IMG/VR virus record: IMGVR_UViG_3300044568_003939
Source of the DNA: a virus
Strand: one strand, 5' to 3'
DNA: 64,000 bases
Shown: positions 36,359-40,337 of the stretch, piece after piece
Layout of the letters: the number at the start of each line of letters is the position of its first letter
How positions within the stretch are numbered: position 1 is the first letter of the stretch
Notes under the pieces: model-generated
Told to the model about the DNA's origin: nothing
The model's input: the letters and a program-made list of their open reading frames with translations, nothing else
Databases searched by the model: none
Made by a program: the position numbers and the translations under genes

Positions 36359-36596
36359 AGAAGGCTCTTTTGATTTTGGTTTTACTGCGGTTCATGAACT
36401 TGAACTTGAAAGTGTTCAGGCTGCAGCAAATAGCAATGCGGTTGCTCAAAACAAATTAGAGAAAATGTATAAGGCAATACTCCCACTGTTGGATAATCTT
36501 AAAAAGAATCCAGAAAAGGACTATATTTTTTGGCCACAACGAATGGACAAAATAGAAAAGTTTGAGCGGATGATTGAAGAGATATACAACGGCTAG
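36348..36596 (+). CDS. Conserved T4-like hypothetical protein (FDFGF...NLKKNPEKDYIFWP)
   Basis: Recognisable motif. Confidence 0.75.
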   Translation: MIFEEGSFDFGFTAVHELELESVQAAANSNAVAQNKLEKMYKAILPLLDNLKKNPEKDYIFWPQRMDKIEKFERMIEEIYNG

Positions 36597-36892
36597 CCTG
36601 CATATACATTGCTACTTGCTACGCATAGAGAAGGAGTAAAAGTACCAGTGTGACTATCAAGTGCATCACCATTACAATGTGCAGGGCGTCCATTTATGAA
36701 TACACTCCCACTGCCAACTATAGCAATTTCTCCGCATAGTGTAGTGTCACCAATTGCTACAGCTTGATAGCCATCAATGTATACCGTATTTCCATTACCG
36801 GCATATGGTGAATTGATATGAGGAGTACCGCCACTAAGCGGCGTATGCGTTGTAGCATAATCAGCACCAACTCTTGCAATACTCTTTCCCAT
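36593..36892 (-). CDS. PAAR spike tip (gp5.4-like)
   Basis: ARVG...H, GD...CG and VFINGRPAHCNGD motifs. Confidence 0.85.
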   Translation of the reverse strand: MGKSIARVGADYATTHTPLSGGTPHINSPYAGNGNTVYIDGYQAVAIGDTTLCGEIAIVGSGSVFINGRPAHCNGDALDSHTGTFTPSLCVASSNVYAG

Positions 36893-36894
36893 AA

Positions 36895-38907
36895 TTATAT
36901 GCTAGCAAATCCCATAGCACTGCCAGTCATTATAGGGTCATATGAACTGTTGCTGTTGTTTACTGAACTTTGAGTTGTATTGTTTGTATTGCCACCGTAA
37001 TTATTAACAATCACAGGAGACACTGATATGTTGTTGCTGCTATTCATCAGTTCGGCACCGGTAGTATTGCTTATAGGAGATACCGTTGGCATTTTATATT
37101 TCCATCCTGATGACCTGTAATCATCCCATGACTCATAGCCAGCTTCTTTAGCTTTAAGTGATTTTTGATCTTCCGTTAACGAATCAGCAGCTGGCATGGT
37201 ACTGCTGCTAGTTGCTTCGCCTTCCTTTGCTTTTGCTTTAAGACCAGCATATTCGTAGATACTGTCTGGTATTGCTTTTGCAACCCAAGTCATTGGATTG
37301 AGTACGCCGGCAGCTGCCGGATCTGGCAATACATCTCGCAATACACTTTTTGCAAACCCTTCGGCAAGATTACCAGCACCGCTTACAGCATTGTTAATGG
37401 CCTCGCCCATCTTAGCCGTCAATTCGGTTATAAGAGTTGGAATATTCATTACCCAATCAATGAGGCCGTCTATTGCTTTGCCAATCGCATCAAATACAAA
37501 CGCTAAAGCTTTATTGAGGGTATCGGTAAAAGAAAAATTATCCAATGCAACTGCAAGATCAAACGCTCCAAACATAGTAGCAATCCATGATACTGCTCCT
37601 TTAAGAGTATCCAATATACCACCAACAAGAGTTGCCCATATGCCAGCTAGCCCAAAATTTTCAAAGGCTTTAGAGAATTTTTCAAATGAAAAGATTGATT
37701 TAAACCAGTCAAATGCGTATATGACTGTATCAAAGATTGCATCTACGCCATCCTTAAGAAGCTGTGAGAATGAGAAACTGTCAAGTAATTTTGAAAAATT
37801 TTGAAAGCCTAATTTGTTAGCAACCCATGATACTATATCCTTTGCGAGGTCTGCTATACCACCAACAAGACCAATTAACAATCCACTGATAGCGCCTTTA
37901 ACAGCACCTAGTACGCCACCTTGTTTGTAGCCTTCGATAGCACCCATTACCGTTTCATATAGTGCGGTAATAAAAACTAACGGCTTAGCTAATACTTTCA
38001 ATACACCAAATAATGCTGGTAAAATGCGAGCTATTCCTTTACCTATCGATACACCAGTTTTAAAGCCTGTTACAAATGCTCTAAGTATACCACCTAAACT
38101 TGTAAAAAATTTCGCAATATTTGGAAACATTTTAGCTAGGCGGCCGCCTATAGTCAGGCCTTCATCGGCCGCTCCAAACAATGGACGAATCATATCGCCT
38201 ACAGCGCGCACTGCACCTGTGAATTTGCCCCAGGCTTCGGTTATTTTGGTAATTGTATTTGTTACATATTTGGCGATTGCAGATTCTCTTACAAAAGCAA
38301 CAGCACTTTCTCCAACTAGTTTTATGGTATTGAAAAAAGAAGTTAGTGCAGCGCGTATAGGGTTGAACGCCTTGGCTATAGCTGTTCCGAGTTTAGAAAT
38401 GCCTAAACTTATTTTTTGATATATTGCAGTGTCTTTAATTAGAGCGCTAAACATCGCAGCCGTTTCGGTAACAAATCCTACAACAGTACCGCCAATTAAA
38501 GCTGCAGCAAAAGCAAGAATGCCACCTAAACCAGATGGTGCCTCGCCTGCGCGTGGTGACGGGCGTCGTCTCTCAGTGTCAGGCGGTGGCTCGTTGCGTG
38601 CACGCAATGCGGCAAGAAGATCTCGACGATTTTCTTCTTGCTGCATATCATTGCTGGTAAAGAATTCCAACAACTCTTTATTGCTGCGACTGATATCAGA
38701 TATCAGTCGGCGCATACTAGTGACAACCGCTAACAGCTGACCACCATTATCAACGCGTTCGCCTTCGGCTTGTGAGTTGATTAAAAGACCGCGAGTAACC
38801 AATTGGTTGGTATTGTCTATCGCGTCCATAATAACATCGCCTGAGAAGTTTAAACTTTTCAGTTGTGCGATTACTTCGACTAATTGACTACTTTCTGTAT
38901 TGGCCAT
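36895..38907 (-). CDS. Tape measure-like protein (gp29 analog)
   Basis: Long Ala/Gly/aromatic helical protein downstream of gp26/gp51. Confidence 0.65.
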   Translation of the reverse strand: MANTESSQLVEVIAQLKSLNFSGDVIMDAIDNTNQLVTRGLLINSQAEGERVDNGGQLLAVVTSMRRLISDISRSNKELLEFFTSNDMQQEENRRDLLAALRARNEPPPDTERRRPSPRAGEAPSGLGGILAFAAALIGGTVVGFVTETAAMFSALIKDTAIYQKISLGISKLGTAIAKAFNPIRAALTSFFNTIKLVGESAVAFVRESAIAKYVTNTITKITEAWGKFTGAVRAVGDMIRPLFGAADEGLTIGGRLAKMFPNIAKFFTSLGGILRAFVTGFKTGVSIGKGIARILPALFGVLKVLAKPLVFITALYETVMGAIEGYKQGGVLGAVKGAISGLLIGLVGGIADLAKDIVSWVANKLGFQNFSKLLDSFSFSQLLKDGVDAIFDTVIYAFDWFKSIFSFEKFSKAFENFGLAGIWATLVGGILDTLKGAVSWIATMFGAFDLAVALDNFSFTDTLNKALAFVFDAIGKAIDGLIDWVMNIPTLITELTAKMGEAINNAVSGAGNLAEGFAKSVLRDVLPDPAAAGVLNPMTWVAKAIPDSIYEYAGLKAKAKEGEATSSSTMPAADSLTEDQKSLKAKEAGYESWDDYRSSGWKYKMPTVSPISNTTGAELMNSSNNISVSPVIVNNYGGNTNNTTQSSVNNSNSSYDPIMTGSAMGFASI

Positions 38908-38916
38908 TGTGATGGT

Positions 38917-39105
38917 TTAGTTGCTATTTTTACGTTTTTGTTCTTCTTCTTTAAGGTGTGAAACAAGCAGTGAAATGTATATTTCCCTCTCCCATGGTAT
39001 CATCATATCCAATTCGCTTAATGAGTATTTGTGGTGCTGCATCAATGCAAAGTTAGTTTGGAAATAATTTACTAATGATTCATGTGAGAGGGCTAATCGA
39101 AAAAA
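38917..39105 (-). CDS. 51: gp51-like ORF in the -1 frame of gp26 (first ATG only at 39042)
   Basis: LSHESLVNYFQTNFALMQHHKYSLSELDMMIPWEREIY; not in ORF track. Confidence 0.8.
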   Translation of the reverse strand, partial: FFRLALSHESLVNYFQTNFALMQHHKYSLSELDMMIPWEREIYISLLVSHLKEEEQKRKNSN

Positions 39106-39800
39106 GCTTTAGTGCCTACCAGTTCCAACGAGTTGTCATGGCCGCAGCCTTTGCATTTGAATTGAACAGTTTGTTTGAGCGCAGGAACTGCTGCAATGAA
39201 CGCTTCAATTTTTTGCATCTGTGAGCGGTTAAGACTGTTGATGAAAACGATCAATTCAGCTTTTGATGAATTCTCAGCTGGATATACCTTCTCAGCATCA
39301 AAGATACTTTCAATACTTGCAATAACAACTTCATTGATAAGATCACCTTGTGTCTTTTTGTCATCAGTCAATCCGCTCATATCTTTAACTCGAATGTAAC
39401 GCATATTGACGCCAACAGTATCAGTAATCATAATTGTCTTTGATACCGAGTCATCAAATTTTACTGCTATTTCATCAAGGTTAATTTCAACTGGGTTTGG
39501 AGCTTCGCACGAGCTGCACTTGACGTTGACGTTGCTAATCTCTCCAACGCTTTTGCTGCGCAACTTAAGGAAAACATATTCAAGGTCAAATGATGTTAAT
39601 GCATTAACATCAACTTTTTCAAATGTGCATGCACGAATAATATCTTTCATTGCGCCTAACATCTCGCGTGAATCTTGTGACTCTTGAGCCATCAGCAAGA
39701 TCTTTTCTTCTTTTACGAGAAATGGGCGATATTCAATAGCCTTCTTTGTGGAAGGAATTTCAACGGTATACTTTGGGGATTCTAGGATTGGTAATGCCAT
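39093..39800 (-). CDS. 26: Baseplate hub/tail assembly chaperone gp26
   Basis: MALP...RPFLVKEEKILL, LRSKSVGE, two CxxC motifs, C-terminal FF. Confidence 0.9.
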   Translation of the reverse strand: MALPILESPKYTVEIPSTKKAIEYRPFLVKEEKILLMAQESQDSREMLGAMKDIIRACTFEKVDVNALTSFDLEYVFLKLRSKSVGEISNVNVKCSSCEAPNPVEINLDEIAVKFDDSVSKTIMITDTVGVNMRYIRVKDMSGLTDDKKTQGDLINEVVIASIESIFDAEKVYPAENSSKAELIVFINSLNRSQMQKIEAFIAAVPALKQTVQFKCKGCGHDNSLELVGTKAFFD

Positions 39801-39821: not shown

Positions 39822-40337
39822 TTAAGTTAGTTTTCGTGATGACCACGTGTTGTATGTAAACACTATTGTTAATTTTTGAACGCTATTTTCTGAAGAGTTG
39901 TCTAGTTCGATAGAATTAACTCCAACAGGCCATGCATATGGAAGTGTGACTTCATATATTGGTTTGTCTGTTTCATCCAACTGTTGTATTATAACTGTTG
40001 TTGCAAATTTTTTAGTATACTCAACCAAGTATGATACTGGATTTATTATCTTAACAAGCCATTGGTCAAAAAGGTTTTTAACATAATAGTCATTTGTTAA
40101 ATAAAACACACAAGTAACATCCTCATCGCTATAACCAGTTGGTACTTTGTTTTCATTACGCCAAACAGAAAAGTCCGTTGTAAGTATTTGTCTCCCTGGC
40201 AGCGTACAGCTTTCGCACAATAGGTTAAGATCTTTTCCATCATCAATTGGATTGGAAATGATAATATTAAAGCGATTACCACGTGATAAACCGGATCGTT
40301 TTATAATGGTACTTTGTAAGTCTTGTATAGATCCCAT
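39822..40337 (-). CDS. Tail tube-like protein (gp54/gp19 family)
   Basis: CESCTLPG...IQQLD...AWP.....EL...KLTIVF pattern. Confidence 0.75.
   Translation of the reverse strand: MGSIQDLQSTIIKRSGLSRGNRFNIIISNPIDDGKDLNLLCESCTLPGRQILTTDFSVWRNENKVPTGYSDEDVTCVFYLTNDYYVKNLFDQWLVKIINPVSYLVEYTKKFATTVIIQQLDETDKPIYEVTLPYAWPVGVNSIELDNSSENSVQKLTIVFTYNTWSSRKLT

Follow-up and report, generated by a model that had tools for sequence, protein, structure and literature searches.

A probable programmed −1 frameshift joins a gp26-like gene to a gp51-type tail in an uncultured marine T4-like phage, at a heptamer conserved among its relatives

In an uncultured marine T4-like phage (IMG/VR record IMGVR_UViG_3300044568_003939; 64,000 nt, G+C 39%, the whole of which is called the window here), the gp26-like baseplate gene carries a slippery heptamer, T_TTT_TTC, just before its stop codon, and the −1 frame entered from this heptamer is open and encodes a tail of the gp51 type. 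Judging from sequence, we consider it very probable that this junction is a real, selected −1 frameshift that yields both gp26 and a gp26-gp51 fusion, in which case one gene here does what T4 does with genes 26 and 51. The features at the junction are as follows.

39800..39093, minus strand: gp26-like gene encoding the 0-frame short product of 235 residues, identified as an open reading frame (ORF) matching Pfam family PF12322.
39105..39099, minus strand: slippery heptamer T_TTT_TTC, in X_XXY_YYZ register and separated from the 0-frame stop by one codon.
39099..38917, minus strand: −1 extension of 60 codons plus TAA, assigned as a gp51-type tail from its translation and its match to phrog_634.
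38917..39045, minus strand: short ORF within the extension, 41-42 residues, taken from the ORF list, with TTG at 39045 and ATG at 39042 as starts; it corresponds to the "gp51" of gene callers in relatives.

On the minus strand, the gp26-like ORF ends ...GGC ACT AAA GCT TTT TTC GAT TAG, with the TAG at 39095-39093, and the heptamer is composed of the final base of GCT followed by TTT TTC. The −1 frame has a TAA one codon 5′ of the T-run and then reads FF RLALSHESLVNYFQTNFALMQHHKYSL...NSN* to a terminating TAA at 38919-38917, giving a predicted fusion of gp26 residues 1-234 plus 60 residues, 294 in all. An earlier note, made from the letters alone, had proposed this in-frame heptamer with an open −1 frame to 38917 and products of 235 and about 294 residues; sequence and translation bear it out, its heptamer, frame and gene coordinates being right to within one codon and the recomputed sum (234 + 60) being 294. 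Its placement of the first ATG of the −1 frame 21 codons in holds as a count from FF, and the same ATG lies 19 codons past the slip, as the 20th codon of the extension. We read the ORF at 38917..39045 as the distal portion of this extension rather than as a separate gene. Neither a second PF12322 gene nor a second gp51-type tail was found within the 64-kb window, which thus holds one locus of each.

The body and the extension both belong to recognizable families. The gp26 protein matches PF12322 (T4_baseplate) with an E value of 2.4e-57 and 194.6 bits against a cut-off of 24.5, residues 9-234 covering profile positions 2-218 of 219, and matches phrog_150 ("baseplate hub") with an E value of 1e-63. 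The 60-residue −1 peptide matches phrog_634 ("baseplate hub assembly catalyst", gp51) over residues 2-59 with an E value of 3e-27, a span that takes in the 19 residues preceding the first Met. The same peptide also matches the C-terminal end of phrog_150 (profile positions 236-281 of 282), and therefore some members of the gp26 family, namely the T4-type gp51 proteins, have it encoded in frame. The alignment of the peptide to residues 200-244 of gp51 of phage RB14 opens at the slip-site Phe, with aligned segments such as FRLALSHESLVNYFQTNF in the window against FKLLVNPDEIFTFYQINH in RB14 and YSLSELDMMIPWER against YSLNSIMKMIPAER. Because homology to gp51 runs unbroken across the point of frame change, the architecture of T4-type gp51 is that of the predicted frameshift product.

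We then compared the junction across 80 IMG/VR loci carrying gp26 relatives at 37-89% identity, together with isolate genomes from a phage collection. T_TTT_TTY lies in register near the gp26 end in 83/83 of the non-T4 relatives first examined (37-89% identity), and the −1 frame of these relatives is open for 57-68 codons, four of them being cut by contig ends. The heptamer is also in register in Pelagibacter phage HTVC008M and, at ~25% identity, in Vibrio phage ValKK3 (KVP40-like), Aeromonas phage PX29 (Angelvirus) and Stenotrophomonas phage YB07. Among relatives at 25-89% identity, NNT TTT TTY is invariant in 77/77 distinct junctions, a count that agrees with the conserved heptamer anticipated at gp26 3′ ends but overstates the number of independent observations, the junction loci being phylogenetically related. 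Together with the phrog_634 match of the −1 peptide, this invariance exceeds what chance would produce.

Which bases are constrained and which are free is informative. The codon before the run is AGT in 27 of the 77 junctions, GAT in 26, AAT in 12, TCT in 7, GCT in 4 and GGT in 1, thereby specifying five amino acids and always ending in T, while these five amino acids take T-ending codons 33-75% of the time elsewhere in the gene. The first Phe codon is TTT in every one of the 77 junctions, compared with 67% elsewhere in the gene, and the last heptamer position varies freely, with C in 42 and T in 35. This pattern therefore fits a slippery site and is not explained by amino-acid coding. The 0-frame stop follows the heptamer after 0, 1, 3, 8 or 14 codons, and because its position varies, it is the heptamer and not the distance to the stop that is conserved. 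Consistently, blastn matches of the window to distant cyanophages and Methylophilales phages start exactly where the heptamer does, at query position 1233.

The junction could instead be two separate genes, with gp26 ending at its stop, a gp51 of 41-42 residues starting at the TTG or ATG at 39045/39042, and a T-run that merely encodes Phe-Phe. The locus is annotated in this way in S-PM2, S-CAM3, Melnitz, HTVC008M and PX29, databases giving the relatives a "gp51" of 40-57 residues from the internal Met, and the start column indeed holds Met in 61 of 73 relatives. However, the remainder of that column is Ile in 7, Ala in 4 and Gln in 1, and two loci lack any ATG. An SD-like (Shine-Dalgarno-like) tetramer precedes the internal ATG in 4/73 loci, which is background level, whereas it precedes the gp26 start in 63/72 and the tape-measure start in 24/43. 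Furthermore, the 19 codons between heptamer and Met are conserved as protein and align to T4-type gp51: mean pairwise identity of the −1 peptide is 48% in the 19 residues before the Met, compared with 60% for the core and 35% distally, so that the −1 frame conservation upstream of the first Met that the earlier note had proposed as a check runs from the slip onward, and the Met itself is not universal. Phe-Phe coding would also leave the invariant NNT, shared by codons for five amino acids, and the invariant first TTT unexplained, and T4-type gp26 retains the FF but encodes it as TTC TTT. Taking these observations together, we regard two separate genes as improbable.

In this branch, evolution does not seem to favour an in-frame fusion either. 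When a fused homolog was compared by phmmer with 1.84 billion cluster representatives, 4,676 matches came back, the best 150 of which all end at FF, and a word-indexed search for in-frame fused proteins recovered few, all of them singletons and several with garbled junctions, as expected from homopolymer errors. An assembly or sequencing indel in the homopolymer, the true gene being a single in-frame ORF of 294 residues, could draw on the error-prone nature of T-runs and on those few fused metagenome proteins (P0007, P0012 and others). By contrast, the split recurs in 87 loci from independent samples as well as in finished isolate genomes, and the tail is in frame in 0/150 of the best cluster representatives, making such an indel very improbable indeed. 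From the sequences, selection seems to keep both the stop and a way past the stop, which is the logic of a two-product gene.

The composition of the run also bears on which machinery would slip. In 42/77 junctions, namely the window and 41 others, the run stops at six T before a C, and it is 7-8 T in the other 35/77. Six T is short for efficient polymerase slippage, and the six-T run therefore fits a ribosomal slip of two tRNA-Phe better than slippage of the polymerase. Transcriptional slippage, in which RNA polymerase adds one U on the T-run and places the tail in frame in a fraction of mRNAs, would give an identical fused protein, and fusions of this kind are known to arise by slippage on homopolymers (PMC5009743); the 35 relatives with 7-8 T would suit it. 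However, the strict X_XXY_YYZ register is needed by the ribosome and irrelevant to the polymerase, though the conserved FF also fixes the register, and an upstream SD-like element in most relatives points to the ribosome, leaving polymerase slippage, in our judgement, at least as improbable as two separate genes.

This upstream element is G-rich (GAG GGR, AGA GGA, CGA GGA and the like) and lies 5-17 nt before the heptamer in 59/77 relatives (77%), compared with 8% of background windows. It is built by synonymous choice, GAG outnumbering GAA by 27:12 there against 411:1290 elsewhere (p 6e-9) and GGR being preferred over GGY (p 1e-6), and by analogy it may be a dnaX-like stimulator. As for RNA structure downstream of the heptamer, the relatives show a mild tendency, with a mean z of −1.6 against mononucleotide shuffles, for which we do not claim conserved structure. 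In certain cyanophages, strong hairpins begin within a few bases of the heptamer on its 3′ side, as in S-PM2 (locus L003:3215-3260; 14-bp stem, z −4.4) and S-CAM3 (L002:2465-2500). A stimulatory structure, if there is any, is lineage-specific.

Several points, beyond the relatedness of the junctions, weigh against a programmed slip. In the window, the 60 nt after the site hold no stimulatory RNA structure (−4.5 kcal/mol, z ~0), and the SD-like element is absent both there (39122-39110, CTG GTA GGC) and in four close relatives. U_UUU_UUY is reported to be much less shift-prone than A_AAA_AAG in Escherichia coli (PMC5009743), and a low ratio of long to short product would therefore be expected, as in lambda G/GT. 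Two distant relatives, Pseudomonas phage Cygsa01 and Klebsiella phage Madison, are without the canonical heptamer, and the ATG of the small ORF in Cygsa01 overlaps the gp26 stop, as two separate genes would have it. In both phages (L087:3190-3260 and L094:2270-2480, respectively), gp26 ends ...ATT TTC AYY TAA; Cygsa01 has its overlapping ATG as TAATG, while Madison has ATT at that place and an unannotated gp51-like tail (..LMPWH..) in the −1 frame. Either a non-canonical slip or another route to the tail would account for these two.

We next asked what the body of gp26 resembles. An AlphaFold2 model built from a 128-sequence alignment (predicted local distance difference test score, pLDDT, 96.2) has a tail assembly chaperone (TAC)-like N-terminal domain (residues 1-90) and a second domain of ~145 residues with a four-Cys zinc ribbon. 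An exhaustive VIA-align comparison against PDB chains placed 3fgx on top for gp26 residues 1-95 (Z 8.0, rmsd 4.0, 85 aligned), followed by 2ob9, the HK97 tail assembly chaperone (Z 7.2, rmsd 3.8, 83/104 residues aligned to the gp26 N-terminus), and 3klu, YqbN (Z 6.9), with the following matches at only Z 5. The 2ob9 chain is HK97 gp13, a member of PF06222 (Phage_TAC_1) and the short product of the annotated HK97 −1 frameshift pair, and YqbN is presumably the XkdN-type chaperone from the tail module of a Bacillus prophage. As a stand-in for the exact 294-residue product, we modelled the natural in-frame homolog P0007 (38% identical, pLDDT 92), for which the same three chains came out on top (Z 7.2 for 3fgx, 7.1 for 2ob9 and 7.5 for 3klu) and in which the tail is predicted as three to four helices with generic helical structure matches only. 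The comparison of predicted structures with known tail assembly chaperones that the earlier note had in mind thus puts such chains first for gp26 residues 1-90 in two models, at Z ~7. PF28602 is listed on the gp51-type tail in our protein collection (P0002-P0028) and may already define the tail as a domain.

Other searches argue for caution about this likeness. Z scores of 7-8 are middling by VIA-align's own standard, and hhalign detected no relation between the gp26 profile and HK97 gp13 (probability 0.2%), both of which count against a chaperone assignment. Neither full-length gp26 nor residues 1-95 alone matched a Phage_TAC Pfam family, the gp26 alignment used as a profile against PDB sequences found no relative of solved structure, and Foldseek of the gp26 model against the PDB returned nothing (best E value 0.2). 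Because the Z scores are middling and hhalign gives no sequence link, we grade the likeness of the modelled gp26 N-terminus to tail assembly chaperones as suggestive and family membership as unproven. Against viral models, Foldseek returned solely gp26-type "baseplate hub" proteins from very diverse myoviruses, and the gp26 fold was seen in Bacillus phage SP-15, Campylobacter phage CP220, Ralstonia phage phiRSL1, Pseudomonas phage PaBG and Leptospira phage LE4; whether the two forms come from a single slipping gene or from two genes could be asked far beyond T4-like phages.

The T4-type arrangement offers a direct counterpart. For T4, Leiman et al. 2010 (PMC3004832) name gp26 and gp51 as chaperones of hub assembly and state that the particle lacks gp51. 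Genes 26 (208 residues) and 51 (249 residues) of RB14 are divergent neighbours, in line with the separate, divergent T4 genes described in the earlier note, and the comparison can be sharpened: both proteins are full-length PF12322 members (E values 9e-64 and 4e-55), and gp51 has an extra tail of ~48 residues matching phrog_634, making T4-type gp51 a complete PF12322 body plus tail, in effect a fusion hard-wired into one gene. T4-type gp26 has retained GLKEFF near its C-terminus, encoded with a non-slippery GAG TTC TTT, and runs three codons further (RB14, L004:3598-3621); the slippery run has disappeared from a gene with no further use for it.

These two forms are distributed differently. Full-length T4-type gp51 occurs in 1,380 phage records, from enterobacterial, Acinetobacter, Aeromonas 44RR-type and Proteus phages, and the frameshift form is spread over Kyanoviridae, pelagiphages, Schizotequatrovirus (KVP40-like), Angelvirus and Menderavirus. 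RB14, 44RR, Henu6 and Phi1 have the gp26 and gp51 genes in divergent orientation, and Klebsiella phage Matisse has them in tandem: there, a gp51-like gene (247 residues) and a gp26-like gene (184 residues) follow directly after the tube-initiator gene on one strand (L092:1501-2795). Such a tandem pair possibly represents a stage between one frameshifting gene and the divergent pair of T4. In a maximum-likelihood tree, the sequences fall into three clans, the frameshift type (support 96/94), T4-type gp51 (100/99) and T4-type gp26 (66/77); as an unrooted three-way split with long branches, the tree did not resolve the branching order of the clans, nor with it the order of duplication and frameshift. 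Since the frameshift form is more widely distributed than the T4-type pair, we think that it is ancestral and that the T4 pair arose by duplication.

We propose the following sequence of events. The majority of ribosomes would stop at the TAG (39095-39093) and release the 235-residue protein, while a minority would slip back by one base with two tRNA-Phe on the UUU and UUC of U_UUU_UUC (39105-39099) and read 60 further codons, yielding a 294-residue protein with the shared 234 residues and a helical tail. The two products would correspond to T4 gp26 and gp51, both hub-assembly chaperones. If the lambda G/GT and HK97 gp13/gp13-14 pairs are a guide, the product of the next gene, a tape-measure or hub protein, would be held by the common TAC-like body, and the rarer tailed form would link the body-bound protein to another part of the tail or baseplate, neither form staying in the virion. 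While the heptamer, its conservation, the shared architecture and the fold likeness are observed, we infer the slip, its low efficiency, the binding partners and a chaperone role for the tape measure. We lean towards gp26/gp51 being the G/GT-equivalent tail assembly chaperones of the T4 superfamily, and lean more slightly towards the fuller proposal in which, in addition, a single frameshifting gene is ancestral and the T4 branch hard-wired the pair by duplication.

Around the junction, the genes of the minus strand run in the order gp4 head closure, gp2 DNA end protector, a tube-fold protein of 171 residues, gp26, the −1 extension, a tape-measure-like protein of 670 residues and a PAAR protein, with gp48-like and wedge genes encoded on the other strand and gp32 close by. 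The neighbours that matter here are these.

40337..39822, minus strand: tube-fold protein of 171 residues, gp19/gp54 superfamily (phrog_3629, E value 7e-35; phrog_45, E value 7e-30).
38907..36895, minus strand: tape-measure-like protein of 670 residues in the gp29 position, starting 9 nt after the extension stop.
36593..36892, minus strand: PAAR spike-tip protein of 99 residues, the next gene of the same operon (PF05488, E value 8e-13).

The 171-residue protein also matches PF06841 with an E value of 4e-5, below the cut-off, and its syntenic counterparts in ValKK3, PX29 and HTVC008M are labelled gp54 tube initiator or tail tube. The tail-tube-like gene that the earlier note placed upstream of gp26 accordingly keeps its tube fold, but by the relatives' annotation it is more probably of the gp54 tube-initiator type than the major tube gene. 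The tape-measure-like gene does start 9 nt past the extension stop, at 38907, as had been claimed. Its product gives a weak match to the phrog_5448 tape measure (E value 1e-5) and lies near the PF25671 T4_Tape_measure clusters in a language-model protein search (score 0.94), and the syntenic counterpart in HTVC008M is annotated as a putative tail tape measure. The PAAR gene follows 3 nt past the tape-measure-like gene, the place taken by gp3 in ValKK3 and PX29.

Our full-text literature searches found no published report of a gp26/gp51 slip. Conserved −1 frameshifting of tail assembly chaperone genes is attributed to Xu, Hendrix and Duda (2004), as cited in PMC5009743, and a 2016 review describes G-T frameshifting as conserved in long-tailed phages "except T4". 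At the level of annotation, the GenBank record of Acinetobacter phage Meroveus labels gp51 "tape measure protein assembly chaperone", and the CPT annotators of Matisse note a "gp51 and gp26 protein family". The gp26/gp51 paralogy and the chaperone label are thus already known in annotations, and the proposed slip is unreported in the literature searched.

If the proposed slip is real, the T4 superfamily is no exception to G-T frameshifting but a cryptic version of it, and T4 is the derived case in which two products became two genes. T4 would then demonstrate, as an experiment of nature, that a pair of the G:GT type can become hard-wired, which would explain the old 'catalyst' label of gp51. 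The ORFs of 40-60 residues called "gp51 / baseplate hub assembly catalyst" in many marine and freshwater phages would be fragments to be re-annotated as joined coding sequences, and for the abundant cyanophages and pelagiphages there would be a well-defined case of recoding, checkable in existing proteomic and ribosome-profiling data.

The closest known system is the T4 gp26/gp51 pair itself (208 and 249 residues, respectively), which belongs to the same PF12322 family and likewise has a short and a long form with a common body and the same C-terminal tail as the −1 extension. This likeness to the window pair is known here by sequence, gp51 being needed for assembly and absent from the virion in T4. 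By contrast, T4 has two diverged paralogs and no slippery site, whereas the window has one gene, from which the two bodies would be identical if the slip is real.

The lambda gpG/gpGT and HK97 gp13/gp13-14 pairs share with the window an X_XXY_YYZ heptamer for a −1 slip near the 3′ end of a gene lying between tube-fold and tape-measure(-like) genes, and short and long products, predicted in the window, with a common N-terminus; the modelled first 90 residues of gp26 moreover bear a suggestive likeness to the HK97 gp13 fold. They differ in that there is no detectable sequence similarity, gp26 standing outside all Phage_TAC Pfam families, in the extra ~145-residue zinc-ribbon domain of the window gp26 and its extension of only 60 residues, and in the upstream gene, which in the window is probably a gp54-type tube initiator rather than the major tube gene. 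T4 genetics places gp26 and gp51 in hub assembly, not in tube polymerisation. Finally, the SD-like element of 59/77 relatives is reminiscent of E. coli dnaX, where A_AAA_AAG is combined with an upstream SD-like stimulator, but the element is missing in the window, and dnaX has another heptamer and belongs to another protein family; its frameshift shortens the product rather than extending it.

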